Below are positions 769-62,567 of a stretch of 64,000 bases of DNA, in pieces (positions within the stretch are counted from its first letter, which is position 1; every line of letters starts with the position of its first letter). The DNA is from a virus (lineage: Duplodnaviria > Caudoviricetes), in the IMG/VR virus record IMGVR_UViG_3300035208_002115. One strand, given 5' to 3'. The translations under genes and the position numbers were made by a program. Below the pieces are notes generated by a model. It searched no databases and was not told the DNA's origin. It saw only the letters and a program-made list of their open reading frames with translations.

Positions 769-1194
769 ATGAAAATAAAATTTTTTAATAATTTTATTAA
801 TGAGAATAACCAGAGTCCAATTATATCTGATGCTGTTAAGCTGATGACAAAAAAATATAACGATGAATACGGTGTTTCATGTGATATAATAAATCAGGGT
901 GATTGTTCAAATTTTGCTGAAGAACTATATGATTATTTAAAAGAAACAGGTATTAATGGTGAGATATTAAGTGATGGTTTATTTTATGACCCATTTAATG
1001 ATGTAGAACCAGAGATGTTATTAGACGTGAATGAGTATGGGAATAAACCAATTGATTTTGAAAAAATTGGTCTACCTTCGCATTATTGGTATTATTACGA
1101 TAGAAAACATTATGACAGTGATACACCTGAAGGTGTAACAGATATGTTTGAATTACCAATTATTAAAAAATTCTATTTAAAATATAGAAAATAA
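769..1194 (+). CDS. Hypothetical protein with N-terminal capsid-targeting-like motif
   Basis: Starts MKIKFFNNFINE; acidic body. Confidence 0.7.
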   Translation: MKIKFFNNFINENNQSPIISDAVKLMTKKYNDEYGVSCDIINQGDCSNFAEELYDYLKETGINGEILSDGLFYDPFNDVEPEMLLDVNEYGNKPIDFEKIGLPSHYWYYYDRKHYDSDTPEGVTDMFELPIIKKFYLKYRK

Positions 1195-1198
1195 TAAA

Positions 1199-1396
1199 AT
1201 GTCTAAAAAGTCTAAAAATAAAAAAACTTTTAGCTTCGAAGATTATATAAAAGCTAATAGACGTGGTTCAAGAGAAGCAGAGCTTGAAGATTCTACGGGG
1301 TGGAATAGTGTACATAAAGCACACGCCACGCCAAAGGATTATAAAAGAAAGGGTAAACATAATAAACCGCTTCTGGATGAAGAAGATGAAGATTAA
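1199..1396 (+). CDS. Small basic protein, possible ArfA-like ribosome-binding factor
   Basis: C-terminal KDYKRKGKH resembles ArfA GSYxRKGKH. Confidence 0.4.
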   Translation: MSKKSKNKKTFSFEDYIKANRRGSREAELEDSTGWNSVHKAHATPKDYKRKGKHNKPLLDEEDED

Positions 1397-1427
1397 TTTT
1401 ATATTTATATTTTTTAAATTTTATATT

Positions 1428-1841
1428 ATGAAAAAGTTAGGTTATATTATTTTTACGTTGATATCATTATCATTTATGGTATCATGTGGGTTTTTTCAAC
1501 AAAATATCCATGAAATTTCAACTATTGATTCTAATAATTTTTATCAGGTTTTTGATAGTGCAAAATATCGTACACCAAAACCAGTGGCGTGTTCCGATTC
1601 TATTTATATATCTAAAGGGTCATTATACACAATTACCAAATTAAAAGCTGCTAATTTGGATTCTAACAATATGTCAGAATTATCTTTTAAATTATTTGTT
1701 ACTTATTCAAATTTAATAGAATCTATTATGATGAACAGTAAAGATTCAACTATTATTTTAGTTCACCATAAATATTGCTTAACTAACTATGAAATAATGG
1801 AGAATCTTGTTATGAACGGTGCAATTTTAGTAAGAAAATAA
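1428..1841 (+). CDS. Putative lipoprotein
   Basis: ATG at 1428 gives MKKLGYIIFTLISLSFMVSC, a signal peptide plus lipobox Cys. Confidence 0.7.
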   Translation: MKKLGYIIFTLISLSFMVSCGFFQQNIHEISTIDSNNFYQVFDSAKYRTPKPVACSDSIYISKGSLYTITKLKAANLDSNNMSELSFKLFVTYSNLIESIMMNSKDSTIILVHHKYCLTNYEIMENLVMNGAILVRK

Positions 1842-1879
1842 ATTTTTACTGAATGTGTATTTAATATAGAATAAATAAT

Positions 1880-1887
1880 TATATTTG
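1880..1887 (+). promoter_or_regulatory. Bacteroidota-type -7 promoter element (TAnnTTTG)
   Basis: Intergenic TATATTTG. Confidence 0.4.
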
Positions 1888-1933
1888 TTGAGTGATATTT
1901 TAAATATCCGCATATTGTATATTTTTGGTTTGT

Positions 1934-3427: not shown

Positions 3428-3721
3428 TTATTTTTCGTCTTTTTCTTTAATATTTTGAATAGTTTTTAATGCTGAGTCTAATACATTGTCAGACTTATCT
3501 ATATTGGCTGCAAACGCTAACATACTTGTAGCTTCTTTTCTATCCCCCACCTTTTTTAATAAATCGGATGCTAATTTTTTACCAGACGTATAAACATCAG
3601 TTATCTTTTTATCTTCTGGGATACCAAGAATTTTATGCATTTTACCTTTTTTAGGTTCAACATCTGCTGTCCATTTTTCTTCATTAATAAATAAATCAAA
3701 TGTTTTAACAATTCTGTTCAT
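3428..3721 (-). CDS. Hypothetical protein with capsid-targeting-like N-terminus
   Basis: MNRIVKTFDLFINE; TTAATATATA upstream at 3741-3750 (minus). Confidence 0.7.
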   Translation of the reverse strand: MNRIVKTFDLFINEEKWTADVEPKKGKMHKILGIPEDKKITDVYTSGKKLASDLLKKVGDRKEATSMLAFAANIDKSDNVLDSALKTIQNIKEKDEK

Positions 3722-3767
3722 TTTATATTTTTATTTTAGGTATATATTAAATATCAATTTTTCTATA

Positions 3768-4742
3768 TTATTTAAACCATTTTTTCCTTATATCATATTT
3801 ACCAGTATCATTCTTCTTTAAATTATATTTGATAACAGCATTTTCACTATTCAATTCAGAAAGAGATTTTTTACTACCGTCTTCTTTCAAATCAAAATTA
3901 TAACCCATTTCCCACCATTTTTTCATCATAACTGGGTCAAAAACAACTGTACCAGCACCCACATTAAAATTATCTGGAAGATAATAATAATTTATATTTA
4001 TATTTTTAAGTTCTCCTTCTATTTTTCCTAAGTGTACATCATCTCGTGTAACACCCAATGATAATATATCTAAAATTCTAAACATAACATTAAAAATATT
4101 TTTAGATTTCCATTTAGACATATCCTTATTTTTTTCAGATAAAATAACAACATCTATTTCTTCAGCTCCCAAATCTATGGCTCTTTGTATGGGGACATTA
4201 TCAAAAATTCCACCGTCTAAATATTCAAAACCATTTTTTTTAAATACTTCAAATGCAATAGGTACAGAACAAGAAGCTAACATCCAATCGCAGAAATCTT
4301 CATAATTACATTCTTTTTGAGATTTATATTCTGAATTAGCGGTGGTCACGTTACCAACTGTAATATTGATTAGTTTATTCATTTCAATAGATTTATTATA
4401 ATCTTCTTTGGTGAAAATATTTTCAATATTTTTTCTTAAATTTTTTCCTTGCCCTATTGAGGTTTTCCCTGTAATTACACGCATTAAAAGATTAAATATT
4501 CTAACTTTTCCATTTTGTTTAAATGGCCTGATATTAAAAATATCTTTATTTGAAACATTTGTATATTTTTCTTTTAATTTGTCAATTGATTTAATAGAGA
4601 TAAGTGGGACTAATAAACTACCAGTAGATGTTCCAATAAAAATTTCCCATTCTTTGTTTTTTAGTTTCATTAAATTTTCGACCAAACCACCACCAAATGC
4701 TCCACGACTACCGCCCCCCGACACTACTAATGCCTTTTTCAT
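3768..4742 (-). CDS. Patatin-like phospholipase
   Basis: GGGSRG oxyanion loop, GTSTG nucleophile, DGG motif. Confidence 0.92.
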   Translation of the reverse strand: MKKALVVSGGGSRGAFGGGLVENLMKLKNKEWEIFIGTSTGSLLVPLISIKSIDKLKEKYTNVSNKDIFNIRPFKQNGKVRIFNLLMRVITGKTSIGQGKNLRKNIENIFTKEDYNKSIEMNKLINITVGNVTTANSEYKSQKECNYEDFCDWMLASCSVPIAFEVFKKNGFEYLDGGIFDNVPIQRAIDLGAEEIDVVILSEKNKDMSKWKSKNIFNVMFRILDILSLGVTRDDVHLGKIEGELKNININYYYLPDNFNVGAGTVVFDPVMMKKWWEMGYNFDLKEDGSKKSLSELNSENAVIKYNLKKNDTGKYDIRKKWFK

Positions 4743-9455: not shown

Positions 9456-10106
9456 ATGAAATACCTAAATAATTATATAGATTTTGTGTCTGAATCAGTT
9501 GAAGAATTTGTAGAATTGGCTGCTGATGTGAATATATTAGAATCAATTGTAACTGATTCAGAATCGTTATTAAAATCTATTCAAGCTAAAGAAGAAGATT
9601 TATATAGTACATTTGAGTTGAATCCAGAAAAATTCCCTCGTAATATGATAATTGAAAAATTATATAATTCACCGACATTCAATAAAAAGTTAGTTTCTAA
9701 GAAATTGAAAAAGTCAACAATGGAAGAAACTGAGGATATGGAAACTTTTTTGGAAAACATTTTAGATGTCAAATTTTTTTTGATACACGAACAAGATAAA
9801 AGTAATTTGGATAAACCAGAATTTATTGTTTTCCAATCTAAAAAAAGAGAAAGTTCAACATGGACTGAAATAAAATTATATTCAGTTCATGATGACATTA
9901 GAAATTTTTATGATAGATTAACTAATAAAACAGTGGAGTTGAAAAAGGGTGATAAGACCTATATTTATTTTACCAGTAATTCAGGTAACAACTGGCAGCT
10001 TCAGAATCTTGAAGTTGCTGATAATATATTTAAAGATTTACTGGATAATGAAGAAATAAAAATGATTTTAAGAGATAAAGATATTACTATTACAATTATA
10101 TCATAA
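9456..10106 (+). CDS. Hypothetical protein with capsid-targeting-like N-terminus
   Basis: MKYLNNYIDFVSE. Confidence 0.7.
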   Translation: MKYLNNYIDFVSESVEEFVELAADVNILESIVTDSESLLKSIQAKEEDLYSTFELNPEKFPRNMIIEKLYNSPTFNKKLVSKKLKKSTMEETEDMETFLENILDVKFFLIHEQDKSNLDKPEFIVFQSKKRESSTWTEIKLYSVHDDIRNFYDRLTNKTVELKKGDKTYIYFTSNSGNNWQLQNLEVADNIFKDLLDNEEIKMILRDKDITITIIS

Positions 10107-10123: not shown

Positions 10124-10336
10124 ATGAAACATTTAAAAACATTTGAATCCTATCAAGATACGAACGAAAGTACGGACTTAGAAGTTTGGTTCGCACAATT
10201 ACCATTAAAACAACAATTAGAAATAACTGGGATTAAAAATACAGGTAAAACAGAAGCACTCTGGCATGAAGCTGAATCAGAATGGTATGCAATGCCAGAA
10301 GATAAAAAGAAAGAATGGTACGATAAATTAAATTAA
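10124..10336 (+). CDS. Small protein with capsid-targeting-like N-terminus
   Basis: MKHLKTFESY. Confidence 0.7.
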   Translation: MKHLKTFESYQDTNESTDLEVWFAQLPLKQQLEITGIKNTGKTEALWHEAESEWYAMPEDKKKEWYDKLN

Positions 10337-16411: not shown

Positions 16412-17383
16412 TTACATTATTCGACCATTGGAAATTAATTTCCCCTTTTCATTAGTATATTTATATCTAATATCGTCCTCGGTTTTTAAAATAACAAATG
16501 AGTTACCTTTCCATATCTTTTTTTGGTCTGGTTTATTTAAGTATTTTTCAGCATCGGTGGAGTTTTTAATTTCTTCACCCGTTACTGTAATAGTAATAGT
16601 TTTCTCACCTGTCCAACCAGATTTTGTCTTTTCTATTTTATTTTTTTCATTCAAAAAATTTCCAAATTTAGTTTCCATCTTTATTATTTTTTTTTTAATT
16701 TCTTAATTTAAATCCAAGTTGTTCTCTTTCCTTGGGTGAAAGTACAATTTCATTCTGGTCTAATTCTACATATTGACCATCATTTCCTTCCCACACATCA
16801 AAAACAGTGTCTAAAGACTTCACACCATCATCACCCATAAAAGTGACTTTATCACCAACTTTATATTTGTATTCACTTTCTGAGTTGGTTTCATTGATAA
16901 AATTAATAAAATTCAATAATTGTTTCATATTTATTTCTTTTATTTTGTTATTTCAGTTTCTTTAAAATAATCGTCAGGACTATTTTCATTTACTTTCCAT
17001 TCATCGTGAGACATCAATTTAGTAGTGAAAAAATCTAATTCTTCTATTTTAATAATTTTGAACTTCTGTGGATGTAAATAATAAATATTTAATAGTCTGT
17101 CAAATGCGAATTGCAATCTCTTATAAGTTCTTGGGGATATCATACCACTTGGATATGGTAGTACTACTATATTATTAATTTCATCAATATTATCGAAAAA
17201 ATTTGTATGCTGTTCCTGTATATTATATACAACTGGATTATCAAAATAAATATTAATGAGTTCTATTGATTGTTCTTCAGTCCTACTACCATATGTTAAT
17301 TTAGGATGGAAAAAATAAATATGTATTTTTTCGGTAATATCTTCTTTTAAAAAATTTATAAAATTATTAACCTTTTTCATCAT
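16412..17383 (-). CDS. Three small proteins with capsid-targeting-like N-termini (16412-16678, 16695-16928, 16940-17383)
   Basis: METKFGNFLNE, MKQLLNFINFINE, MMKKVNNFINFLKE. Confidence 0.7.
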
Positions 17384-17391
17384 GTAGTATT

Positions 17392-18243
17392 TTATTTTAA
17401 AATCGTACTGGTAGCAATTAAATCTACATAATCATAAAATTCTTCAACTTGGGATATGTTTCTTATACCACCACTTACAACAATTTTAATATGTTCTGGA
17501 AGAATTTCTCTCATATATTTCACTTTAGTTAAATCAGCACCTTTCATATTACCAGTAGATGTCATTACGCATTCTGCACCACCTACATCACATAATTCAC
17601 AAGCCTTTTTTAACTCATCTGTTGTTAATTCACCAGCCTCAACAATAACTCTTAAAACTACACCGTTTTTAGTACAAATTTCAGCGACATCTTTTATCTT
17701 AATTTCAATCTTATCATACATACTTTGAATAGTTTCCTGTTCATCTTTTATTTCTTCTTTTGTCAATTCGTTTTTCTTGATATTTGAACTTAAAATATTT
17801 TCCAGAACTTTTGCTTCTTTTAAAACTTTATAATCTATCACAAAATTAACTATATCAGCACCTTCGGATATAGTATCCAAAGCCTCTTTTATATTTTTTT
17901 CTGAATTATTTTCACCAGTTGGATAATTAACCACCGTTGATATTTTAACATCATCTTCTTCAAGAAAAGCATAAGCTTCTGGTACATAGTATGGTAGAAT
18001 ACAAATAGAATAATAACCTTTATCTTGGGCTATCTGACATAATTCTTTTATCTTATCCAAATTGATATCTTCTTTAAGATAAGTATATTCTATCATATCA
18101 TTATATTTATTCAATTTTTCTTCTTCTTTTTCGGAAACTTTTTTTGCAGGTGTTTCTACTTCTGGTTCTTCTGATTGAGTTTGACCAGTTACACCGCTTG
18201 TCTGAATGTTTTCTACTAAAAATTGTAAATAATTCTTAATCAT
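17392..18243 (-). CDS. DeoC (deoxyribose-phosphate aldolase)-like protein, probably inactive
   Basis: TVVNYPTG, GADIVNFVID, LRVIVE, MTSTG, SGGIR; catalytic lysines absent. Confidence 0.85.
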   Translation of the reverse strand: MIKNYLQFLVENIQTSGVTGQTQSEEPEVETPAKKVSEKEEEKLNKYNDMIEYTYLKEDINLDKIKELCQIAQDKGYYSICILPYYVPEAYAFLEEDDVKISTVVNYPTGENNSEKNIKEALDTISEGADIVNFVIDYKVLKEAKVLENILSSNIKKNELTKEEIKDEQETIQSMYDKIEIKIKDVAEICTKNGVVLRVIVEAGELTTDELKKACELCDVGGAECVMTSTGNMKGADLTKVKYMREILPEHIKIVVSGGIRNISQVEEFYDYVDLIATSTILK

Positions 18244-18336: not shown

Positions 18337-19377
18337 ATGAAATATTTATTCGAATTTAAAGAATATTTAAATAAGAATTTCTGGGTGTGGTTTGAGAATT
18401 CAAAAGTAGTTGATAAAAAAGGTAACCCCCTAATTGTTTATCATGGAAGTTCTGTAAATAAACTTTTTAATAAATTTAATGAAAATAGTCCCATATGGTT
18501 TTCTACATATAAAGGATACGCAGATGCATTCACTGACTATAAAGGTAAACTGTTTAGCGTATATTTAAAATTAGAAAATCCAATATATGTTGGTTTTATA
18601 GATGGTATTGCAAATGACAATAGTATAAAGCACTTATCTGAATTAACAAATATAGATTTCGACACCTTAAAAGAAATATTAAAAAAATCAAATGGTGTTA
18701 ATTTATTTAAAATTACAAACAGTTTAGAATTTAAAGAGCTGGTACAAGAAATGGGTTATGATGGCATTGAAGCAAAAGAAGGTGGTGGTCTAACCTCATT
18801 TGCTGTTTTTTCTTCAAAGCAAATAAAATCTGCAACAAATAACAATGGTAATTTTGATTTAAAAAGTCAGAACATTAATGAAAACACCAATAAAAAATTA
18901 CAAAATATAAATCAGAATATGAAACATTTAAAAATATTTGAAGGATTTAATTATGATAAATCACGGTATGTTGAAATTCTTAACAAAATAAATAGTGCTA
19001 AAGTCGGTGATATTTTACCAGAAGATATAGTGTATCAATATGTTGAATATTTAGTTGTTTCTGGGTCTTTGACACAAGATTATGGAAGCTCTTTTGTAGA
19101 TGGTGATTTAGGTGAAAGAATAGAAAAATATCCAAGTTATAAATTAATGGAATTACCGATTGGTGAGATAGATTTAGATGAATTTGAATTAGATGAAGAA
19201 ATTGCTGATGAATATGCTGAAAAATTTGAAAAGACAAAATACTATCCACCTCTTGTAGTTGGAGCAAAAAACCCAAAATTTGGAACATACAGAATAATAG
19301 ATGGTAACCATAGAGGAAATGGTTTAAAAATAGCTGGTGAAGAATTTGTACTTGCATTTGTTGGAATTAAAAATTAA
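18337..19377 (+). CDS. Fusion of ART-PolyVal-like domain and ParB/Srx-like domain
   Basis: WFENSKVVD.KGNPLIVYHGS, GYDGI, QIKSA..NNGNFD; C-terminal PPLVV...IIDGNHR; internal MKHLKIFEGF at 18919. Confidence 0.7.
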   Translation: MKYLFEFKEYLNKNFWVWFENSKVVDKKGNPLIVYHGSSVNKLFNKFNENSPIWFSTYKGYADAFTDYKGKLFSVYLKLENPIYVGFIDGIANDNSIKHLSELTNIDFDTLKEILKKSNGVNLFKITNSLEFKELVQEMGYDGIEAKEGGGLTSFAVFSSKQIKSATNNNGNFDLKSQNINENTNKKLQNINQNMKHLKIFEGFNYDKSRYVEILNKINSAKVGDILPEDIVYQYVEYLVVSGSLTQDYGSSFVDGDLGERIEKYPSYKLMELPIGEIDLDEFELDEEIADEYAEKFEKTKYYPPLVVGAKNPKFGTYRIIDGNHRGNGLKIAGEEFVLAFVGIKN

Positions 19378-19404: not shown

Positions 19405-20208
19405 ATGGAATATCTAAAGACATTTGAATCTTTTTTATCTAAAGACATTAGAAAAGAGTTGGATAAATTGATAAAGAAAAGAAAAAATTTATTAAAATCA
19501 GATAAATCTGATAAAAGTATTAATAAATTGAATTCTGAAATTAAAGAATTAAAAGAAGATTTATTTTATCAGAATGATGATAAATACTATAAAAAATTTA
19601 TATCTCTTTCAAAAGAAAAAATTGAAGATTTGAAAAAGGAATACCGAGAATTAAAAAAAGAAGGTATCAAAAAGCTAAATGATGAATTGAAAGAAGAAGG
19701 TCATGAAGGTAGTATAACTGCAATAGACCTATCCGATAGTGAAATATTTTATTATTTAGATAAAGCGGAATCAGAAAAGTTTAATGAATATGCCAGAATA
19801 CTTGATTTTGTAGATGGTTATAAACCTAAAAAATCTAAAAAGGTGAATGAAAATGTTGAAACTTCTGACAAATTAATCAAAACAACATATCAAACAGTAA
19901 CACCAGAAAGTGCAGCTAAAGGTGGTTTTGAAGACCAAGGTTGGGAAGATGAAGAAGGTAAATCTATGTCACCTGATGAATATGATATAGAAGAAGGTGT
20001 AACTGCTATTGATAAAGCAGTTGAATTTTTAAAAGATAATGGTGCTAATGAACCATCATCATCACAGTTTAATACTGGTGTATGGTATTCAACTCCTGAT
20101 GGTGAAAAAAATTATACAACGGGAGAAGAAAAATTTCATAGTTTTCATTTAAAAGGTTTTACACCAGAGGAAGAAGAAGAAATTTACAATAGAATGAAAC
20201 TAAGATAA
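19405..20208 (+). CDS. Hypothetical protein with capsid-targeting-like N-terminus
   Basis: MEYLKTFESF; TTAATATATA at 19374-19383. Confidence 0.75.
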   Translation: MEYLKTFESFLSKDIRKELDKLIKKRKNLLKSDKSDKSINKLNSEIKELKEDLFYQNDDKYYKKFISLSKEKIEDLKKEYRELKKEGIKKLNDELKEEGHEGSITAIDLSDSEIFYYLDKAESEKFNEYARILDFVDGYKPKKSKKVNENVETSDKLIKTTYQTVTPESAAKGGFEDQGWEDEEGKSMSPDEYDIEEGVTAIDKAVEFLKDNGANEPSSSQFNTGVWYSTPDGEKNYTTGEEKFHSFHLKGFTPEEEEEIYNRMKLR

Positions 20209-21164: not shown

Positions 21165-22823
21165 ATGTTTGTAAATTGTTTCGATTGTAACTGGAGTCAA
21201 GATGATTTCTGGGATTATCATATAAAATGGAAAAAGATTTTAAAATGGAGAAGTAGGCCGTTTGGTTATAATCCATTATCTATCTTATTGGAAGATATAG
21301 CCACTTATTGGTTTCCAAGAAAAATAAATATGGATTCATATTGGGCAAGAGAAAAAGGATTTAAAACAAATCGTGTCCATTCTTGGTGGTTTTTTAGAGA
21401 GGGGTTTAGACGATATAAAAAGGTTAAAAAAAGTATGGTATATAAAACATATGATGAATATGAAAAAGCAAGGAAATTGGGTAAAACTAAATGCCCAAAA
21501 TGTGGAAGTTACCATTTAGATGTTGATTAAAAAATATTTTTATTTTAATATATAATAGAAAATATTTTTTCTTATGAAACATCTCGAAACTAACATAAAT
21601 GAGTATTTGAATCTTTTTCAAAATAAACCACAAACTATTTCTGAATTATCTAAGGAAATAGAGATAAAGGTTTATAAGAATAATATTTCCAAATTATTTT
21701 CATTTGTTGGGGATGGTATTTGGGATGTTAAATTTATATCCCATAAAGATAAACATGATAAATATAAGAATGAAATAACTGTCAAATTTCACTCAGATTC
21801 TGGTATATCAAGTTCGGTGTGGGATAAAGTAAGAATGATATTAGATAAACTTAAAGGTGAAGGTGGTTTTGAAGATTATAATATTAATCAGGGTATTGAT
21901 AGTATAGTATTAATATTTAATTCTGACTTCCCAATGATAGAACATTAAATGTTTTAATTTTATGATTATAAATAATAAATTAACTTACCAAGAAGCAACC
22001 GACTTAATCAATATTTATATTACAAAAACTTTAAATGAAAAGGAACAAATTGATGATAAAGTTTTTAATCAATATATAGCTGACAAGTTCAAAAACATTT
22101 TAAAGTATTTAGAACTCGAATTGAACCATCCAGAAGAATTTGAAAAATACGGCTTTAAAATATTACCAATTATTCATGAATATTTTAATATTACATGGTT
22201 AGAAAAAAATGAATATTACGAAATATATCGTTTATATCATTTGTTGATAAACAATCATGATGATTATTTAAATTGTACATTAAAACTTATAAATATTAAA
22301 CTTAAATATTTAATTCAAAAATAAAAATATAGTTATGGATATATACGGAGATTATGAACAGACAAAAAAGATTAAATATAAATGTCCAGTTTGTCTAAGT
22401 GAAGATATAAAAGACATTAGCACATATAAAAGTAATGGTATTATAGGTTCGGGTTCTTCATCGTGGAAAACATCTGATTTAAGGGGTTGTAATAATTGTG
22501 GGGTTATATTTATGCCAACCAAAGGAAACACAATCGAATAAAATAATATATAATATCAAAATAAAAATCATAACATGAATTTTTTAAGTTGGATACCAAA
22601 TGAATATTTCAATCAAAATAACAATTCAAGTCTTGAATATTTTTATTACTATGAATTAATTGAAGAATATACACCTGAACATCCAGATTTTAATACGTGT
22701 CCTCTTAAATTAAGAAAAATATTAAAATGGGCGAAAATTTCAAACGGTGAACACACAGTAATTGTGGCTTGTAATGAACGGACTGATAGTACTATAATAA
22801 TTATGAAAAAAATATTAATATAA
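21165..22823 (+). CDS. Five hypothetical genes (21165-21530, 21574-21948, 21962-22324, 22335-22541, 22575-22823)
   Basis: Two carry CxxC pairs (zinc ribbons); 21574 starts MKHLETNINE after TTAATATATA at 21545. Confidence 0.6.
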
Positions 22824-29151: not shown

Positions 29152-29176
29152 TATTTAAAAATCTAATTTATTCAAT

Positions 29177-29692: not shown

Positions 29693-29713
29693 ACCTCATT
29701 AATAAAAAATATT

Positions 29714-29747: not shown

Positions 29748-29793
29748 ATTCATGTATACCTTGTATTTTTGATATGAATTAAAAATATGTGAT

Positions 29794-32334: not shown

Positions 32335-32712
32335 ATGACACATGTTAAAACATTTGAAAACCATTCTGGGGAATCTTCCAATAGTATAAAATGGGAAACT
32401 ATAAAAAAACATGTAGCAAATCAATTACGTAATTTGTTACAACCAAGGGATATCATCATAAAAGAAGCTGGCAAAATATTAACATATCTTGTTAAAAGAA
32501 GAATTAATAACGAAAAAGAATTGACATTCACTCAGACATGGGATGTATTCAAAGAAGTTAAAAATGATTTAATCAGTATTGTGGATAATTGGGATATTAG
32601 AATGTGTGACAAATTGATAGAACTATATCCAAAAGGTGTTCCTTCTTTCGTTAAAAATAAAAAATATAAAGCCGAATTAACTGATGATGGATGGATTTTA
32701 GTGAAAACTTAA
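32335..32712 (+). CDS. Hypothetical protein with capsid-targeting-like N-terminus
   Basis: MTHVKTFEN; TTAATATATA at 32303-32312, inside the upstream gene. Confidence 0.7.
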   Translation: MTHVKTFENHSGESSNSIKWETIKKHVANQLRNLLQPRDIIIKEAGKILTYLVKRRINNEKELTFTQTWDVFKEVKNDLISIVDNWDIRMCDKLIELYPKGVPSFVKNKKYKAELTDDGWILVKT

Positions 32713-41983: not shown

Positions 41984-42472
41984 ATGAGCCATATATTAAA
42001 CTTTAACAATTTCCGTATACATGAATCTAAATTCGATAAATCTGAATTTGATTCAGTAACAGAAGATATTAAAAATATCCTTAATATGAACTTTTCTCCA
42101 GCTAAAAATATCTTTTATAAAGTTGGTGAAGAATTTTTAGATTACCCCAAATACTTAGCAACCAAAATTATTCCAACAGCCGTGCGTTTCAATGTGACTG
42201 ACCAAGATTTTAAATATACAGACCCAGATGATGAATTACGGAACGAATATACGGAAGGGGTTCTTTCAAAAAGAGCCAATGATATTGGGTTAATGCCTGT
42301 TGATAAATATGAAGAAAATGGTAAATTTTTTATGGAATATGAGGTTATTCTACATGATGTAGATTTAAACCGAGCTGTTAAATATGGGGATGATGATGAC
42401 GAAGAATCTTTTGATGGTAAATACTCTGACGATAATGAAGATGATGGAGAAGGTTTAAAAGGAGTTTTTTAA
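41984..42472 (+). CDS. Acidic protein with capsid-targeting-like N-terminus
   Basis: MSHILNFNNFRIHE; TTAATATATA at 41955. Confidence 0.7.
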   Translation: MSHILNFNNFRIHESKFDKSEFDSVTEDIKNILNMNFSPAKNIFYKVGEEFLDYPKYLATKIIPTAVRFNVTDQDFKYTDPDDELRNEYTEGVLSKRANDIGLMPVDKYEENGKFFMEYEVILHDVDLNRAVKYGDDDDEESFDGKYSDDNEDDGEGLKGVF

Positions 42473-43650: not shown

Positions 43651-43666
43651 AAAATAATTTATATTT

Positions 43667-44170: not shown

Positions 44171-44180
44171 TTTAACATGG

Positions 44181-44843: not shown

Positions 44844-44856
44844 TAATATATAGAAT

Positions 44857-45078
44857 ATGATAACAATAAAAAATATATTAGTACATCAACTGTGGACATT
44901 AGTTTATGAAGAAAAAACTAAGATAATACATTTAAAAGAATATTTTGAATATAATAATTTAGGTACTAAACATAAGGTTATGTTTTTTGATAATGAAGAA
45001 GAAATGAATGAGAAAATAAAAGAATTAAATCTTATCACATTAAATGAATATTTAAAATTAAACAGATACAATGTCTAA
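44857..45078 (+). CDS. Small hypothetical protein
   Basis: ORF within the same operon. Confidence 0.55.
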   Translation: MITIKNILVHQLWTLVYEEKTKIIHLKEYFEYNNLGTKHKVMFFDNEEEMNEKIKELNLITLNEYLKLNRYNV

Positions 45079-45499
45079 AATTAAAGCTAAACAGGTTGAA
45101 AATAATTCAATAACACAAAATAAAATATTTTTATCTATTCCAATTTCATCAACTTCACCAGCATCTGTTGATTATGTTAAGTCAATTAGTGGTAATACAC
45201 TTAAATATTCAATTGTAAATTTGGATATGGTTGCTTTAATAACAGACACAGATGGTGACTTAGCTTGTGACACCGCCATTTTAAATGTTCCTATAAGTGT
45301 TGTAACAGTGAATGTTAATGGATTATTGGTAAATGTTGGTAGTGGAACAACGGCTTCTTGTTTTTTTTCAGGTGATAATGGTTCTACTAAACGTAACATA
45401 GGAGATGAACAACAAGGTGATAAATTATATTGGGTCGGGTCAGTATCTGGATATGAATTAGCCAGTGATGATATAATAGATTTTATTTATTTAAAATAA
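45071..45499 (+). CDS. Putative virion structural protein, paralog 3
   Basis: Same motif set as 43204 and 43667. Confidence 0.6.
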   Translation: MSKIKAKQVENNSITQNKIFLSIPISSTSPASVDYVKSISGNTLKYSIVNLDMVALITDTDGDLACDTAILNVPISVVTVNVNGLLVNVGSGTTASCFFSGDNGSTKRNIGDEQQGDKLYWVGSVSGYELASDDIIDFIYLK

Positions 45500-52381: not shown

Positions 52382-53260
52382 ATGGGGGAAAAATACGACA
52401 AAATTCTACAAAAAAAGAATAACGAATTAATTTATTATATTTTAGATTGGGATGATAATGTATTATACATGCCTACTAAAGTATTACTTGACAAAAAAGT
52501 CAACAATGAATGGATACCCAGAGATGTTTCAACATTTAAATTCCGAAATATAAAAGACCATGTTGATGCATGGCAATATAAAGAATACGGTGATGATGAT
52601 ACTCTTTATAAATGGAGATTCAGGGACGATGATATTGACATGGCCTTATCATATTTCAGAGATTATGGAAAAAGAGGTAGTTTACAGTTTTTATATGATG
52701 TAAAAAATGCAATCAAGAAAAAAGGATTTGCACCATCTTGGAGCATATTTATAGAAACATTGATTAATGGTCGTATATTTTTAATTTGTACAGCACGAGG
52801 CCATGAACCAGATAGTATACGAAGTGGTGTAGAATACATAATATTTAATTTTCTATCTGAGATGCAGAAAGAAAAGATGTTAGAAAATTTAATGGAGTGG
52901 GAAGATACTGACTGTAATTGTTTTAAAACATTAGTAAAAAATTATTTAGACCACTGTCTATTCATCGGTGTACAATCTGAATATTTTAAAGAAAAATACT
53001 CAGTTGATGGAAGAAATATTAAAGTAGAAGAATCCAAAAAAATAGCTATTATAAGTTTCATAGAATATCTCACAAAAGAATATTTACCTATGTACAATAA
53101 TCCGAAAGCTAAAGTTGGATTTTCAGATGATACAATATCGACACTCCTTAATATAGAAAAATTAATGAGGAACGAATTGTCCCTCATTTACCCTTTAGAT
53201 TTTTATGTTATTGATACGTCCGACCCAATGGTCGATGGTGGTATTAAACGTAAAGTTTAA
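52382..53260 (+). CDS. HAD-superfamily phosphatase-like protein
   Basis: LDWDDN (DxD), TARGH, conserved K, GFSDD. Confidence 0.7.
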   Translation: MGEKYDKILQKKNNELIYYILDWDDNVLYMPTKVLLDKKVNNEWIPRDVSTFKFRNIKDHVDAWQYKEYGDDDTLYKWRFRDDDIDMALSYFRDYGKRGSLQFLYDVKNAIKKKGFAPSWSIFIETLINGRIFLICTARGHEPDSIRSGVEYIIFNFLSEMQKEKMLENLMEWEDTDCNCFKTLVKNYLDHCLFIGVQSEYFKEKYSVDGRNIKVEESKKIAIISFIEYLTKEYLPMYNNPKAKVGFSDDTISTLLNIEKLMRNELSLIYPLDFYVIDTSDPMVDGGIKRKV

Positions 53261-54064
53261 TATTTTTCAGTTGCAACCAGAGCTTCTGATATTTCATGGA
53301 TATTTCCTTGGAATCCAGCTCGTTTATTATCTTCGGATGTGTTATCTAACTTATAATCTTCAATCCACAATTCATCAATACCTTCACCAGCATCCCACAC
53401 TTTATAATTTCTATCATTTATTTTAACAGTTGCATATGCACCTTGATAATTATCAAATCCCTCAACATTTATTAGTTCAAATGGAAATCCTTCAGGTAAA
53501 ATTTCTTTTAAATCTTCCATTTGGTCAGCCATATATTTGATACGACTGGTATATTCGTCTACATCATCGGGATTATCCTTAACATATTGCCAATCCAAAT
53601 CAGAAGGCCACTCACCAGTTTCATTTATTTTACCTGTTGTAACATTCTCGTTGAATTTATTGAATTCTTTTAAATATTTCATAATTAATTTTTTATTTTT
53701 AGTGTATATATTTTTAATTTTTAATCGGCATTTCCATTTTATTATTTTTAAGTCCTATTGATTTGTCAAATGCATCTCTTTGTTTTGACCATTCATGTTT
53801 ATCATATGGGGTTTTATATGGTAATAAATTTAAAGCTTCTTTTTCTTTGCCTTTAAGTTGAGATAACACAAAATCAACAATTTGTCTTTCATCTCTTTCA
53901 CCATTGTATGGTGATTCAATTAAACCATTTTTTTCTAATTTATCAATGGCACTTTTATTTAAAGACATAGCAGAAGTAGGTTCATCTCTTTTCCATAATA
54001 CATCTTCTATTTCTTTTCTTAAAAAATCTTCATTATAATTTTCAAAAGTTTTTATAAACTTCAT
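53257..54064 (-). CDS. Two proteins with capsid-targeting-like N-termini (53257-53682, 53714-54064)
   Basis: MKYLKEFNKFNE, MKFIKTFENYNE; TTAATATATA at 54091-54100. Confidence 0.75.
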
Positions 54065-57756: not shown

Positions 57757-58152
57757 ATGAAACAACTACTTTTTACCATCCTTTTTTTGGGGTTAACATT
57801 AACTACATTTGGACAGCAATTATTAAACAGTTCTACGAAACAAACAGAAGAATATGCTTACTTAACTATTGAAAGCGAGACAATTATAGTGTCTGGTGAT
57901 GCAGAAAACACACAGTCTAAAACATCCGATATCATATTTAAAGTATATATCACCAATGGCGTTAATACAGAATTTATTACAATAAATAAAAAATTTAATA
58001 GTGAACTTTATTATATAAATCAACTTGCTAAGTTAGGTTGGTTATATGTAGAAAATGTAAATAGGATACAGTTAGAAGAAAGTATAACCTTTGCCACTAC
58101 GGATAAATATACAATTTGTAAAACCTTTTTGTTCAAAAGACACACTGATTAA
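57757..58152 (+). CDS. Secreted/periplasmic protein
   Basis: Signal peptide MKQLLFTILFLGLTLTTFG-Q, Bacteroidota-style with Gln after cleavage. Confidence 0.7.
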   Translation: MKQLLFTILFLGLTLTTFGQQLLNSSTKQTEEYAYLTIESETIIVSGDAENTQSKTSDIIFKVYITNGVNTEFITINKKFNSELYYINQLAKLGWLYVENVNRIQLEESITFATTDKYTICKTFLFKRHTD

Positions 58153-58247: not shown

Positions 58248-59801
58248 ATGTTAATTAAGAATTTCAATTCATTCATAGTTAATGAAAGTGCTGAATCTGT
58301 CGTTGAGTTTCTAACAAAAGTTAGAGAAGACTTAGATATAATGGGCGAAGTTAAACCTATTCTAAATTCATCTTTCGAACGTCTTAGTAGTAAGAAAATT
58401 AATACAGTCGATGATTTCAGAGAAGCAATGGAAGATGCAACGGGGGCTGATGCAACTAATTTAAGTGGTTTCGACCTTGATAAGCAACTTGACCTGTGTA
58501 TATATGCAGAAGAAGAAGAAGATGGTAATGATAAAGGATGTCCAGCTTGTTCTTTTGATGATTTAGCTGGTATAATAAATGATAATGCTGTAAATGGTTT
58601 GAATTATATAGTAAATAGTTATTTACATCCACTTTTAGATAGAATTGAATCTTTCATGAATAATAATAATTTATCATATAGTAATATTCATCGTTTTGAA
58701 CAATATGATATGTTAGCACCATTATCACAAAAAACAATAGTAAATGGTTCTTATTCAATATATCAAGAAGCTAAAGAAGACCCCAAATTCGCAGAATATA
58801 ACTATATAGATGAAGAACTTGGGACTGAATTCTATATTACAAAAATGAATATTAAATAATGTCAATAAAATCGTATAATTATTTTCTGACCAATGATAAT
58901 AAATCAATTATAGAAAATTATAATAAATTAATATCAGAGGGTGTAGAAGTTGATGATGCTTTATTAGAAACTGCCCAGAAATTTAATAAAGATAAAAAGT
59001 CTATCAATAAAATCGTTATTGGTGTATTATACGAAAACACATATGCGAAGAAATTTGAAGATTATATAGGTAGTACTCCACACATTAATAGAGAAGATAT
59101 AGGTTTAAAACCTGAAGGTGGGGAAGAAAATGAGGAAGAAGAAACACAAACATCTACTGATAAACAAGACCAAGATATTATACACTTCGGAGAATATAGA
59201 AAAGGGTCTGATAAATGGGGTTCAATGATAACTAAGATTATGGAATGGTTACGCCTTAAAAAAGATGAAATGAAAAAAGAGTTGGATAATATTCAAATAA
59301 ATGTTGATGATTTTCAAAGTGAAACAAATATACCATTAACTGAACTTGAAGATTTCGTTAAAGATAAAATTTCAAAAGGTTTATATAATTTTGAAATAGT
59401 CATTGATTATGATAATAACTCAATTAAGTTTTATAACTTATCTGATAGAAACACATTACAAATTGAACAAAATAAGTAAAAATATGAAAAAACATATATC
59501 AACTTTTAATAATTTTTCAAATGAGTCTCTAACAAATATTGGGAACTTGAAAAATACAGTACAAGTATTCAATTGGATTGATATTGATGCGAATAATAAA
59601 TTAAGAGAACTTATATTAAATTTTTATAGGAGTGATTTAAATGGAAGTGATACTTATATAAGATATTACCCAAATGATAATGATTATGACTATATGAACC
59701 AAGAACTACAAACACTCTTAAATGAATATCTTATTAATGATGGATATTACATTGATAAAAATGATGAATACTTTTATATTCTATTAAGAATCGATTGGTA
59801 A
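58248..59801 (+). CDS. Three acidic proteins with capsid-targeting-like N-termini (58248-58859, 58859-59479, 59484-59801)
   Basis: MLIKNFNSFIVNE, MSIKSYNYFL, MKKHISTFNNFSNE. Confidence 0.7.
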
Positions 59802-59867
59802 ATAACCATATTTACATTTAATATTTTATTTTTTAATATATAGAATTATAAAATAAAATCTTAAATT

Positions 59868-60623
59868 ATGGCAAGAATTCCATTGGAACAATTAATTGAT
59901 ATCGTTCAAGCTGATTTAACCTTTTCAGGTGCAATACCAAAAGTTCTTCCTGATAAAGAAGTAAAACGTGTAATAAAAGAACATTGTATAGAATATTTTT
60001 ATAAGAATTATCAATTTGCCTTATTAAAAACCTATTATAAGTTAAATAGAAGCTGTTTAACTCAACTTCAATGTACAGGTGAACAATTCATTCAATTACC
60101 AGAAGAAGTCGAAGGACTTGTTCGTATTATGAATATTGATGACCCATCATTGTTCCGAATTGGGATTCAAGCCCCAAACCTATCTATAAACTTTGGTGTA
60201 ACAAACCAACCGTTTTTAACATCATTTGTTACTAATGTTGGCGAGTTAGCTACATATCGTCAAATATTAAGTGCATTTTCAGATGAGGTGAATAAATTAG
60301 CAAGAAACTTCACAAAGTTCCATTATAACCACGTTAATAAAAGATTAACTATACTGGATGACCTTAGAAATGATTTAATGTTAGAACTGTGGGTGAGAAT
60401 TGAACAGGAAGCATTATTCGACAATCAATTATTTAAAGATTATGTTATTGCATCTTCACAAAAAAGAATGGGTGAATTATTAGGAAGATACACATTCAAC
60501 ATGCCAGGTTCGTTTCAATACAACGCTTCTGATATTATATCTAACGCTGATGCAAAAATAACAGAGATTAAGGAAAAAATAGATAAAGAATCTAAGGTTA
60601 CATGGTTCTACATGAGTAAATAA
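59868..60623 (+). CDS. Neck/head-completion protein (T4 gp13-like)
   Basis: KDYVIA...MGELLGRYTFNMPGSFQYN resembles the gp13 C-terminal LPGG motif; TTAATATATA at 59833. Confidence 0.6.
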   Translation: MARIPLEQLIDIVQADLTFSGAIPKVLPDKEVKRVIKEHCIEYFYKNYQFALLKTYYKLNRSCLTQLQCTGEQFIQLPEEVEGLVRIMNIDDPSLFRIGIQAPNLSINFGVTNQPFLTSFVTNVGELATYRQILSAFSDEVNKLARNFTKFHYNHVNKRLTILDDLRNDLMLELWVRIEQEALFDNQLFKDYVIASSQKRMGELLGRYTFNMPGSFQYNASDIISNADAKITEIKEKIDKESKVTWFYMSK

Positions 60624-60634
60624 TAAGATTAAAT

Positions 60635-61312
60635 ATGATTCTTAAATATAATAAATTCTTAAATGAATCCTTAGACTTTAAATTGAATAATCCTGAATTT
60701 TGGGAAGATTATAAAAATTTATTAAAAAAACTAAATAATCAAGATAACTTTTCATCTTACTGGGAATTTAAAGAAAAGTGGGTAGGTGTTGTATTAGAAG
60801 AAAAACAACTTGAAAATGCTTATAATAAATTATATGTTGATTTACACAATAAAAATATAATTCCTGTCGGAATAACATTCAGTGAAAATATTTACATGTA
60901 CGCATATGGATGGCGAGATATTACTAAATTCTTAAAAAAAGAATATAATATTAATATAGATGACCCCTTTGATTTTATTAAAAATAAATCAGTTAAAATC
61001 TTCAGAGGTGTACCAAAAACTCAATATGAAAATCTTGAATACTTATCTGAAAATAAATTTAAATCTTTTACATTAGACAAAGAATTGGCAATTCGATTTA
61101 CACAATTAGGTTATGTTAGTGGGAGCTGGAAAGATGAATCGCAAAAAAACGGGTTTATTATAGAAACAGATATAACATTAAATGATATTTATATATACAA
61201 CCCAGAAGGTCACGAACACGAATGTATAGTTCGAGGTGAGTTAAATTATAAAAAAATCCATATTGTTGAAAATGGCAAAATTACAGAAGTTGCAAAAATT
61301 ACAGAATTATAA
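60635..61312 (+). CDS. Putative R-S-E ADP-ribosyltransferase with capsid-targeting-like N-terminus
   Basis: IFRG...SFTLDKELAIRF...EHECIV; starts MILKYNKFLNE. Confidence 0.6.
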   Translation: MILKYNKFLNESLDFKLNNPEFWEDYKNLLKKLNNQDNFSSYWEFKEKWVGVVLEEKQLENAYNKLYVDLHNKNIIPVGITFSENIYMYAYGWRDITKFLKKEYNINIDDPFDFIKNKSVKIFRGVPKTQYENLEYLSENKFKSFTLDKELAIRFTQLGYVSGSWKDESQKNGFIIETDITLNDIYIYNPEGHEHECIVRGELNYKKIHIVENGKITEVAKITEL

Positions 61313-62138
61313 AAGTTTTATTAATGAAGATTTAGGATTAATGGAACATGATGGCATATTAATTATAGTCGATGTTCAAAAAGAATTTGGTGATTACATC
61401 CCCGATGATATGGTTAAAGAATTGTTTGAATATTGTAAAGAATTTCATGATGTATATCAAATTTGGGATGCTCATGATGCTGCTACTCCGACTTTTAAAT
61501 TTCCCAATCAGAAGTTATCTATAAAAAAGCAATTCGGTAAAAAATTCTTAGAAAAAGATATTCAAAGTAAATTGGAAAAATTAAAAAATGGTAGTATTGA
61601 AGGTCAACAAATACAAATCGATTCGGATGACATTTTCGTTCGAGTTAAAAATAACCACGATTGGTTTTTTATAAACGAAGAATTATTAAAACTATTTAAT
61701 GAATTAAAAGGTAAAAAGGTTATAATGGTAGGTGGTGCTGACTTTGAATGTTTAAAAGATGTGTTTATTGCATGTAAATCTATGGGTGTTAAGGCCATGT
61801 TAAATCATAAATATATTTACAGTGCCGAAACTAAAAAGGAAGAAATATCCGAAAGTGTTGTATTTAAAGTTAACAATAACACTCCTGAAATTTTTCAAAG
61901 AACCATTTATAGATTACCAACTACAAAAGAATTAGAAAATGTAAATAAATTCAAGTTATCAGAAGAAAAAATTTTAAATGGATTTGTTTATACCATTATT
62001 GGTAGAGGTATTAAAGATTCTAAAAATAAACAAATAATAATAGAATCCATATCAATATTATGTGAATTATATCCAGATAATGAAACATATAAAAAAGCAC
62101 TCATTTTAGCTAAAAATCTGTCATTAAAAAGATTTTAA
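61272..62138 (+). CDS. Isochorismatase/cysteine hydrolase-like protein with capsid-targeting-like N-terminus
   Basis: ILIIVDVQ.EF, D.H, VGGADFEC; KLQNYKSFINE. Confidence 0.7.
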   Translation: MAKLQKLQKLQNYKSFINEDLGLMEHDGILIIVDVQKEFGDYIPDDMVKELFEYCKEFHDVYQIWDAHDAATPTFKFPNQKLSIKKQFGKKFLEKDIQSKLEKLKNGSIEGQQIQIDSDDIFVRVKNNHDWFFINEELLKLFNELKGKKVIMVGGADFECLKDVFIACKSMGVKAMLNHKYIYSAETKKEEISESVVFKVNNNTPEIFQRTIYRLPTTKELENVNKFKLSEEKILNGFVYTIIGRGIKDSKNKQIIIESISILCELYPDNETYKKALILAKNLSLKRF

Positions 62139-62168
62139 AAATTAATATATAAAAATAAAAACATCAAT

Positions 62169-62567
62169 ATGAAATACTTGAAAATATATGAGTCATATAG
62201 CAGTAATAAGTCTGAAAATTTTTATGCCAAATTTTGGATAACTGCATTATCGAATGCATTTAATAGTATTGCTGAAGTTGATAAAAGTCAGAAAATAAAA
62301 CCATTATATGGTGGGGGTGATTATATATTTGTCGGATACAAAATACCAATCCCAGATATAGAAAAAATATCTTATATTATAATAGAAGGTGTTCAAATTA
62401 ATGGTGTTATAGTTAATCCGTCAATAATAGTTTTCGATGAACAAAATATGGGAATGAGTCATGGTGCATTGCATACTACATATACATTCAAAAAGTTACA
62501 TAATGAAAATATAATTGAGGTTATAGAAGCAGCTAAAGATTATATAAAAAAATATTCATCAAATTAA
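62169..62567 (+). CDS. Hypothetical protein with capsid-targeting-like N-terminus
   Basis: MKYLKIYESY; TTAATATATA at 62142. Confidence 0.7.
   Translation: MKYLKIYESYSSNKSENFYAKFWITALSNAFNSIAEVDKSQKIKPLYGGGDYIFVGYKIPIPDIEKISYIIIEGVQINGVIVNPSIIVFDEQNMGMSHGALHTTYTFKKLHNENIIEVIEAAKDYIKKYSSN

Follow-up and report, generated by a model that had tools for sequence, protein, structure and literature searches.

A candidate capsid-targeting propeptide of the T4 type on at least about 120 genes of an uncultured megaphage

Among the proteins packaged by phage T4 is an enzyme, the ADP-ribosyltransferase Alt. Alt and the internal proteins IPI, IPII and IPIII are unrelated apart from a capsid targeting sequence (CTS) of 10-15 residues at the N-terminus, which is removed by the prohead protease gp21, as summarised in reviews of Mullaney and Black 1996 (PMC9026906, PMC3012670, PMC5694885). 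Mutagenesis assigned residues 4 and 7 (Tyr, Phe) of the CTS to targeting and residues 8 and 10 (Ile, Glu) to processing (PMC9026906). Head and ejection proteins of phiKZ, 201phi2-1 and SPN3US have propeptides that are cut by gp175 or gp245 (PMC5694885, PMC10052503): these are giant phages with about 50 head proteins and a prohead protease, from the related S80 family, that cuts after Glu, and the propeptides are thought to direct incorporation. Polyvalent proteins of phages and conjugative elements, as far as PMC7824862 describes them with reference to Iyer et al. 2017, contain conflict domains, ART-PolyVal and ParB-like ones among them, whose entry into the host along with the DNA is predicted.

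The window, a stretch of 64,000 nucleotides, is part of the 675,678-bp genome (27% GC) of an uncultured, Mahaphage-like megaphage with a T4 core. Variants of M-K-x-[LI]-K-x-[FY]-x-x-[FY]-[IL]-N-E begin 21 of its ORFs (16 clear, five weak), and we found no paper describing such tags. The original prediction had placed tags on exactly these 21 ORFs and at one internal site, and all are present; its figure of about 20 tagged late genes described a tag that is real and far above chance, but understated the scale. The whole-genome motif scan that it had proposed finds 123 of approximately 1,124 genes with a score >=10, to be read as a lower bound (at least about 120), with crude gene calls and a motif matrix from the same genome as is scored. 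Because these N-termini themselves served to train the matrix, the unbiased enrichment figure is the count of an untrained pattern: [FY]xx[FY][ILVF]xE, starting at residues 3-13, is found in 41 genes versus 4.3 expected from internal positions (9.4-fold, Poisson P=6e-26). At >=12 bits, the matrix has 100 N-terminal matches versus 9 across 147,777 internal positions. Hydrophobic-x-Glu is present in register in 47 of the 123 tags and within nine residues in 72; about 40% of the tags have none nearby and cleavage after Glu can thus not hold for all of them. The large tag class without a cleavage ending, MKxLKTFExF, may behave differently.

Matrix scores of the window N-termini, from the matrix trained genome-wide, are 9-19.6 bits in 16 of 21 and 6.6-7.0 bits for the five weak tags (18337, 21574, 41984, 53257 and the internal 18919); for minus-strand genes, the first coordinate is the low end of the ORF. 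The tag of 769..1194 (plus strand; MKIKFFNNFINE, then N; 19.6) lies outside the fold in the AlphaFold model, with residues 1-12 disordered (pLDDT <50) and a folded body from residue 12 (mean pLDDT 90) for which no fold match was found in the PDB; a paralogue of this gene adjoins the capsid gene. Further tagged genes are 3428..3721 (minus; MNRIVKTFDLFINE, then E; 17.8) and 9456..10106 (plus; MKYLNNYIDFVSE, then S; 10.4), the latter with 10124..10336 directly downstream on the same strand (MKHLKTFESY; 15.2; of the class without in-register hydrophobic-x-Glu). On the minus strand, 16412..16678 (METKFGNFLNE, then K; 10.9), last in a four-gene array, lies next to 16695..16928 (MKQLLNFINFINE, then T; 16.3), 16940..17380 (MKKVNNFINFLKE, then D; 15.0; with the second Met of the ORF taken as start) and 17392..18243 (MIKNYLQFLVE, then N; 16.2). 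The plus-strand protein 18337..19377 has two modules: a weak tag (MKYLFEFKEYLNK; 6.9) is followed by an ART-PolyVal domain (residues 26-173; Pfam PF18760, 81 bits), N-I-N-E, a complete internal tag MKHLKIFEGF (nt 18919, residue 195; 6.9) and a C-terminal IDGNHR (ParB-like) module; it resembles two tagged genes joined into one. Also on the plus strand are 19405..20208 (MEYLKTFESFLSK; 19.2), with a Lys-rich linker and a conserved C-terminal domain widespread in phages, 32335..32712 (MTHVKTFENHSGE; 13.7), the weak member 41984..42472 (MSHILNFNNFRIHE, then S; 6.7), which has the aromatic pair and an I-H-E one residue out of register, and 21574..21948 (MKHLETNINEYLNLF; 6.6), a doubtful member lacking the aromatic pair. 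The minus-strand genes 53257..53682 (MKYLKEFNKFNE, then N; 7.0) and 53714..54064 (MKFIKTFENYNED; 16.0) are a weak and a clear member, respectively. A same-strand run of plus-strand tagged genes from 58248 to 62567 is opened by 58248..58859 (MLIKNFNSFIVNE, then S; 16.4) and includes 59484..59801 (MKKHISTFNNFSNE, then S; 14.8), 60635..61312 (MILKYNKFLNE, then S; 10.9), 61272..62138 (MAKLQKLQKLQNYKSFINE, then D; 16.4) and 62169..62567 (MKYLKIYESYSS; 9.0). The second tag of this run, 58859..59479 (MSIKSYNYFLTND; 13.0), has Asp in place of the expected Glu; in T4, an Asp at this place of the CTS (position 10) prevents processing while targeting persists (PMC9026906). RtcB, SbcC-like, AAA and patatin housekeeping enzymes of the window are untagged.

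The likeness to the T4 CTS that had been predicted holds in every sequence feature examined: the IPIII tag MKTYQEFIAE reaches 11.4 bits when scored with the megaphage matrix, and the four most conserved tag columns are those T4 CTS positions (4/7 and 8/10). Both have aromatics at i and i+3, then [IL]-x-Glu, and the pattern recurs at the maturation site of T4 gp23 (F-G-S-F-L-T-E, then A), which is cleaved after residue 65 (PMC9958956). In both phages there is an ADP-ribosyltransferase among the carriers, and the tag alone is conserved while the bodies diversify. T4 has fewer than ten carriers, whereas the megaphage has about 120 or more putative ones, and these are scattered over the whole genome with no clustering at the head module. 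The megaphage tag differs further in being often longer (M-K-x-[LI]-K-x- prefix), in its preference for Asn before Glu and in its large class without a cleavage ending, and its carriers have a slightly negative net charge (median -0.023 per residue versus 0), in contrast to the basic T4 internal proteins of the literature.

The gp21-type prohead protease that the original prediction had suggested locating is encoded in the genome and has the catalytic His and Ser motifs: it matches phrog_207 'head maturation protease' (E=1e-26) and Pfam Peptidase_S80 (27 bits, above cut-off), tblastn finds hundreds of proteases of T4-like phages, and in a pairwise alignment with T4 gp21 (25% identity, E=1e-4) the GE(F/L)(D/N)HP and VSSR motifs align. 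Unlike in T4, the protease is fused to the scaffold, a tandem array in which a 14-residue unit with the tag core (Y-S-E-Y-[IL]-A-E-N-[LV]-D-K-N-I-x) occurs about 14 times. The repeats are conserved in 62 distinct relatives and form a single long helix in the best of five predicted models; a separate 77-residue protein starts with two literal scaffold repeats, followed by a tail. In nearly all of 45 relatives inspected (56 retrieved), the propeptide of the capsid protein ends around residue 44 with [MLIV]-N-E, and Asn comes next; hydrophobic-x-Glu is common to tags, capsid protein propeptide end and scaffold. On comparison, T4 scaffold gp22 has no aromatic repeat of this kind, and mimicry of the scaffold by the tag is therefore no general T4 rule. 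The link between tag and scaffold repeats had been missed in the prediction.

A promoter-like element, TTAATATATA, has 16 copies in the window versus 3.8 expected, a number reached in 0 of 100 shuffles, and its 9-base core TAATATATA lies 14-35 nt upstream of eight of the 21 tagged starts. Copies precede 3428..3721 (3741..3750, minus strand; 28 nt), 9456..10106 (9441; 14 nt), 19405..20208 (19374; 30 nt), 21574..21948 (21545; 28 nt), 32335..32712 (32303; 31 nt), 41984..42472 (41955; 28 nt), 53714..54064 (54091, minus strand; 35 nt) and 62169..62567 (62142; 26 nt), the distances being those of the core for the first two genes and of the element for the others. The remaining tagged window genes sit in same-strand arrays, making an operon arrangement plausible; the claim that most tagged genes lie directly behind the element or in an operon with it holds for the eight and is plausible for the rest. 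Genome-wide, the element is found 20-39 nt ahead of start codons, and TAATATATA precedes 36 of 123 tagged versus 90 of 1,001 untagged genes (odds ratio 4.2, P=3e-9). Genes for tail sheath, fibre and tail proteins likewise have it some 30 nt ahead, and it is this promoter sharing that suggests the label "late" for the tagged genes.

In our reading, the motif is probably a capsid-targeting propeptide of the T4 type; T4 has a handful of carriers, and in the megaphage their number would have grown to at least about 120. We infer docking, entry into and retention in the head, cleavage after Glu and ejection of the tagged proteins. Tagged genes would be transcribed together with the virion structural genes, and the flexible N-terminal peptide, with its aromatics at i and i+3, would dock each protein onto a prohead core built by the protease-scaffold fusion, whose helical repeats present the core aromatic-x-x-aromatic-[IL]-x-Glu. 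After shell closure, the protease would cut after the Glu of hydrophobic-x-Glu: this would dismantle the scaffold, remove the capsid protein propeptide at [MLIV]-N-E/N and free cargo with tags ending in [IL]-N-E, while proteins with other tag endings would be loaded but not clipped. The cargo would stay in the head with the DNA and enter the next host cell together with it; it would comprise many small proteins of unassigned function as well as ADP-ribosyltransferases, an Acb1-like phosphodiesterase, a Nudix enzyme, a SprT-like protease and a DeoC-like protein. If true, the virion may carry the products of about a tenth of the phage genes as cargo. Against this reading speak the size of the set (more than 120 species, some 15-20 times that of T4 and, to our knowledge, without precedent), the many tags with no hydrophobic-x-Glu ending, the slightly negative charge, the scatter over the genome, the two thirds of tagged genes with no element copy of their own and the lack of a comparable repeat in T4 gp22. 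The propeptides of phiKZ, 201phi2-1 and SPN3US differ in motif ((S/A/G)-x-Glu or A-x-Glu), are mostly longer than 100 residues with no shared short tag, and are found on eight to about twenty processed proteins. As an analogy only, the cargo-loading peptides of encapsulins are likewise short, transferable terminal peptides that load unrelated enzymes into an HK97-fold shell, but they usually sit at the C-terminus, bind directly to the shell protein, stay uncleaved and are not known to resemble the megaphage tag in sequence.

Conservation at the start of late genes could also stem from translation initiation or the mRNA, if the host does not use Shine-Dalgarno sites, or from a cassette of promoter and 5' coding region spread by recombination, with no protein signal involved. 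The genome is very AT-rich and no Shine-Dalgarno sequences were found upstream, Met-Lys starts are common anyway, and phages of the T4 type reportedly have mobile regulatory cassettes (PMC2839356). We regard this as very improbable: synonymous codons at conserved tag positions are used much as in the genome (Phe TTT 81% versus 77%, Glu GAA 79% versus 89%), indicating selection on the peptide rather than the RNA, and Ile/Leu/Val and Phe/Tyr interchange. In addition, the core starts 3, 4 or 6 residues from the Met, leaders between promoter-like element and ATG are not conserved, two thirds of the tagged genes lack their own copy of the element, and the same peptide is found internally in the scaffold and in the fused protein. 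In support of the propeptide reading, the tag varies independently of the body. The 123 tagged proteins form 116 BLAST clusters with several different Pfam domains and their bodies are, by sequence, mutually unrelated; orthologues of two window proteins have swapped leaders, mostly with hydrophobic-N-E at the same junction, and some begin right there. This is the case for the body of 769..1194, while homologues of the C-terminal domain of 19405..20208 have the same tag, a different leader (KERLFEV..KTFKPxLNE) or none.

Packaging is deduced from sequence, and a peptide on very many carriers, about 40% of them with no cleavage ending, could instead serve an end other than the capsid: it could address proteins to a chaperone or AAA+ machine of the late phase (the window has MoxR-type AAA and VWA genes) or to a compartment made by the phage, or mark them for regulated degradation, and its likeness to the T4 tag would be convergent. 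This is quite unlikely: it gives no account of the use of one and the same core for the head scaffold of 62 relatives, of the resemblance between tag ends and the site of capsid protein maturation, of the exact coincidence of the four conserved positions with the functional ones of T4, or of the promoter that tagged genes share with tail genes. Alternatively, the tag may bring proteins to the prohead core, with most carriers being expendable core or filler, comparable to T4 gp67 and gp68, that is degraded by the protease and leaves the head: assembly material rather than effectors. The identity of tag core and scaffold repeat, the 77-residue protein with little beyond two such repeats and the slightly acidic bodies agree with this, as does the small size of most carriers, with function mostly unassigned and only 13 Pfam families matched among 121 tagged proteins. 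Still, we judge it rather unlikely, given the folded enzymes among the bodies (about four to six ART-PolyVal, Acb1-like, Nudix, SprT-like, DeoC-like), the confident compact fold predicted right after the tag and a density of cleavage motifs in the bodies that is not raised, unlike in the scaffold. A strong bias towards ADP-ribosyltransferases, mirroring Alt, also favours packaged effectors: six of seven ART-PolyVal genes of the genome are tagged (P=1e-5), compared with one of seven Nudix genes.

Of the enzymes that had been proposed for the window, only one of two ART-like proteins was found (18337..19377), and its ParB-like call has the C-terminal IDGNHR motif as sole basis. A DeoC-like fold for 17392..18243, an aldolase-like (DeoC/LacD) barrel behind an acidic linker, is supported as a lead by the match to a DeoC cluster of the Atlas (features 0.90, TM 0.79 over residues 35-283), together with a weak TIM-barrel match in Pfam. 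For 61272..62138, isochorismatase/cysteine-hydrolase identity is a weak lead (Atlas 0.83-0.86, TM 0.39 by query and 0.66 by Atlas row), with no match in Pfam. By joining ART-PolyVal to a ParB-like module, 18337..19377 resembles polyvalent proteins, but the megaphage effectors are mostly separate small genes with their own tag rather than domains of one giant protein; an 828-residue protein of the polyvalent type is encoded elsewhere in the genome.

The window corresponds to bases 157,370-221,369 of one phage contig of 675,678 bp, which has a GC content of 27% and uses the standard genetic code. The nearest named relatives are uncultured 'huge phages' of 630-735 kb (LR7565xx); the Lak phages of Prevotella are further off. 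Leaders are A-rich and genes lack Shine-Dalgarno sequences, which we take to be compatible with a host from the Bacteroidota. The head genes are found at 543-550 kb: a head maturation protease and a portal protein are encoded there together with a major capsid protein that resembles T4 gp23 (Pfam Gp23, 88 bits). Right beside the intact capsid gene, but on the other strand, lie short Gp23-like fragments (genome 541287-542308, plus strand), perhaps left over from a copy of a capsid gene.

All 21 window ORFs listed in the original prediction as carriers of a common N-terminal tag (variants of M-K-x-[LI]-K-x-[FY]-x-x-[FY]-[IL]-N-E) are present, with N-termini as described. Gene calling was crude: the longest ORFs that do not overlap were taken (1,124 genes). 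A 12-column matrix was then trained around the core [FY]-x-x-[FY]-[IL]-N-E on the N-termini of the same genome: 16 of the 21 ORFs score 9-19.6 and the other five are weak. At 12 bits or more, the matrix has 100 matches with the first aromatic residue at residues 3-12, versus 9 among 147,777 internal positions. Because the matrix had been trained on those N-termini, a plain, untrained pattern ([FY]xx[FY][ILVF]xE) was used as a second test, and this has 41 N-terminal matches versus 4.3 expected (P=6e-26). Such position-specific enrichment rules out chance or composition as the source of the tag. Across the whole genome, the matrix identifies 123 tagged genes at 10 bits or more; the estimate of about 20 tagged genes thus holds for the window, but understated the scale. 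Visibly tag-like N-termini under the threshold suggest that the true number is higher still, and a set of more than 100 carriers is without precedent. One match, an 832-residue GmrSD_N protein (matrix score 11.4), is probably a false positive, as its domain starts 300 residues from the protein start.

A single paralogous family is ruled out by all-against-all BLAST of the bodies, as the 123 proteins, stripped of their tags, fall into 116 clusters; Pfam matches few of the bodies, all different (ART-PolyVal, Nudix, 2H/Acb1-like, SprT-like, HNH). An RNA-level signal or a mobile promoter cassette is ruled out by codon and leader analysis: at the conserved Lys, Phe, Asn and Glu positions the choice among synonymous codons is that of the genome as a whole, Ile, Leu and Val are interchangeable and so are Phe and Tyr, the distance between core and initiator Met varies (3, 4 or 6 residues) and the mRNA leaders of tagged genes are not conserved. 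Together, these four observations indicate that selection acts on the peptide.

The tag is a detachable module. AlphaFold modelled the 769-1194 product with a mean pLDDT of 90: residues 1-12 (MKIKFFNNFINE) come out disordered, and the folded part begins at residue 12. A Foldseek search with this confidently modelled body found no match in the PDB. In other phages, orthologues of this protein have different leaders, MSKDIRKMIDKLKNFKTFVNE and MKLRKFIATTIREYLNE being two examples. Most of these leaders finish with hydrophobic-N-E at that same junction, and there is one orthologue that begins right after the junction. Likewise, the conserved C-terminal domain of the 19405-20208 product occurs with the tag, with another leader (MKKNATKERLFEV..KTFKPxLNE) that is common to other genes of that lineage, or without any leader. 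Related contigs have tags of the type F-x-x-F-I-N-E as well, one example being MKTYEEFINE, from a phage of 233 kb. A contig of 31% GC, from another phage lineage, has its own shared leader, K(E/Q)RLFEVMxKLDKTFKPxL(N/K)E; the contigs with such an alternative KERLFEV...LNE leader are fragments and have no protease on them.

The gp21-like protease, which the original prediction had left to be located, is an 801-residue protein encoded next to the capsid gene. It is a head maturation protease of the gp21/gp175 kind (MEROPS S77/S80) by its match to phrog_207 (E=1e-26) and to Pfam Peptidase_S80 (PF20034, 27.4 bits versus a cut-off of 23.4), while PF03420 gives 13 bits only; tblastn retrieves hundreds of proteases of T4-like phages. 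Identity to T4 gp21 is 25%, and GEFDHP and VSSR align with GELNHP and VSSR of gp21, presumably the catalytic His and Ser motifs. Fused to the protease is a scaffold-like region (residues 255-465) of about 14 tandem 14-residue units, Y-S-E-Y-[IL]-A-E-N-[LV]-D-K-N-I-x, which is kept in 62 distinct relatives with 60-97% identical proteases. The array is weakly predicted to form one helix of about 230 residues, weakly because only one of five models is confident. Each unit includes the core of the tag and is nearer still to the T4 tag (Y-Q-E-F-I-A-E); from residue frequencies, the chance of a given 14-residue unit holding the pattern is estimated at about 0.003. A 77-residue protein (genome 415016-415249, plus strand) starts with two literal scaffold-type repeats (YSEYIVEHLDNSIA and YAEYITEQL), followed by a basic tail. 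Of 56 relatives retrieved, 45 were inspected, and almost all of these have [MLIV]-N-E and then Asn where the capsid propeptide ends, at about residue 44; this end is that of the tag ([IL]-N-E-[N/E/D]). As scaffold, capsid protein and tags have matching motifs, one common cut site is predicted for all three.

In Tenacibaculum phage PTm1, too, protease and scaffold are fused; the scaffold repeat there is another one, of 16 residues, and no common tag was seen within the 77 kb examined. Lak-A1 of Prevotella has no scaffold repeats and has other leaders, few in number; the leaders that its genes share are MNKNIKxL[LM]ESLFDE and MIKFKEKKK.

The likeness of the tag to the capsid targeting sequence (CTS) of T4 extends to single residues. 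The tag of T4 IPIII, MKTYQEFIAE (10.1101/2021.01.19.427310), scores 11.4 bits on the megaphage matrix. In the T4 CTS, residues 4 and 7 are the main determinants of targeting and residues 8 and 10 those of processing, and Asp at residue 10 blocks cutting, not loading (PMC9026906); these functional residues (Tyr4, Phe7, Ile8, Glu10) match the four columns in which the megaphage tag is best conserved. Like a T4-type CTS, the tag is at the extreme N-terminus, lies outside the fold and is conserved on unrelated bodies. Maturation of T4 gp23 removes the first 65 residues (PMC9958956), and the site as read from the T4 record, F-G-S-F-L-T-E|A, equals the tag in its pattern. The T4 scaffold gp22 differs from the megaphage scaffold in having no such tag-like repeat. 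T4 tags are well described, and so are the long propeptides of phiKZ-type phages (PMC5694885, PMC9026906); unlike the latter, which have (S/A/G)-x-Glu and exceed 100 residues, the megaphage tags comprise 10-15 residues with Ile, Leu or Val two before the Glu.

In most carriers the first aromatic residue is at residues 3-9, and both aromatic positions, the columns with the highest information, are F, Y or W in 103 of the 123 tags. Hydrophobic-x-Glu is found in register in 47 tags and within nine residues in 72 (versus 15% background). About 40% of tags have no nearby hydrophobic-x-Glu, and our guess is that these proteins may be loaded but left unclipped, by analogy with the T4 Asp10 variant. 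The tagged bodies are mildly acidic.

Tagged genes also share a promoter-like element. Of its 9-base core, TAATATATA, 148 copies have a gene start no more than 150 nucleotides downstream, and 96 of them are located 20-39 nucleotides before the start codon. The core is found upstream of tail sheath, tail fibre and tail protein genes, with a variant upstream of the protease gene, and precedes 36 of 123 tagged versus 90 of 1,001 untagged genes (odds ratio 4.2, P=3e-9). From this sharing we infer that the tagged genes would be late genes. Tagged genes are less often preceded by a host-type -7 box (TAnnTTTG), a difference that is not significant (odds ratio 0.52, P=0.095). In the window, the longer element TTAATATATA occurs in 16 copies versus 3.8 expected, and the core lies directly before eight tagged genes. 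Single tagged genes behind promoter-like sites are those at 3428, 9456, 19405, 32335, 41984, 53714 and 62169, and same-strand runs of tagged genes are found at 16412-18243 (minus strand) and 58248-62567 (plus strand). A small protein with a signal-peptide-like start (MKQLLFTILFLGLTLTTFGQQ) is encoded within a tagged run, at 57757-58152.

T4 packages the ADP-ribosyltransferase Alt (PMC9958956). In the megaphage genome, ART-PolyVal (PF18760) has seven matches at E<=0.01, of which four pass the Pfam cut-off, and six of the seven genes are tagged (binomial P=1e-5); the window match, at 18337-19374, has 81 bits. The only Acb1-like gene is tagged too; of seven Nudix genes, just one is. The 18337-19377 product is, by its sequence, a fusion of two modules: a weak tag and ART-PolyVal (residues 26-173) are followed by N-I-N-E, a complete internal tag (MKHLKIFEGF) at residue 195 and a module ending in IDGNHR. 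An untagged polyvalent-type protein of 828 residues (genome 397781-400267, minus strand) has a ParB-like GVIDGFHR, an ART-PolyVal module and a CCA/poly(A)-polymerase-like GGAIRD, with K-I-N-E|S between modules (residues 288-290), and may be a protease-jointed polyprotein. Untagged genes of the window include an SbcC-like gene and those for a DUF2201 metallopeptidase/VWA protein with a MoxR-like AAA ATPase (27448-31641), an RtcB RNA ligase (38793-40085) and a patatin-like phospholipase (3768-4742).

Motif match, gp21-type protease, the motif in scaffold and capsid protein, and promoter sharing all support the T4-type interpretation, and it is probable that this megaphage has a greatly expanded T4-type capsid targeting system. 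The tagged proteins would then be packaged and cut and, by analogy, ejected into the host with the DNA. A more tentative possibility is that the tag is one copy of the 14-residue helical repeat of the scaffold: cargo would co-assemble with a coiled-coil core and be freed by the cut that dismantles it. The T4 reviews consulted describe the CTS receptor only as affinity for the core; the scaffold reading, if true, would name this receptor and would explain, in a concrete and testable way, how tags of the T4 type reach the prohead core. In the open-access literature, we found no paper on a short tag shared by more than 100 huge-phage genes or on a scaffold of tag-like repeats, and no proteome of this uncultured phage was found in the literature searched.

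Huge phages have hundreds of genes without a known role. If the tag marks more than 100 genes as virion cargo, this would be the first functional label for a large part of that set. It would also point to the proteins that act in the first seconds of infection: ADP-ribosyltransferases, a phosphodiesterase that is likely anti-CBASS, and many proteins without a known role. On the more tentative scaffold reading, more than a tenth of the genes of this megaphage, mostly without a known function, would form a pre-made proteome that is delivered with the DNA and disarms the host before phage expression. The T4 tag is already in use for loading foreign proteins, and the megaphage tag with its cut site is a natural candidate for loading them into large capsids.

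A different N-terminal sequence, x-K-G-K-Q-[LFV]-E-N-x-S-I-T-x-N-K, starts three consecutive small genes of the window (43204-45499). It also heads many proteins of 550-1,560 residues behind a late-type promoter (genome sites 281850, 312046, 318188, 323791 and 373862) and so makes up another N-terminal module common to many genes, which may serve for attachment to fibre or baseplate.
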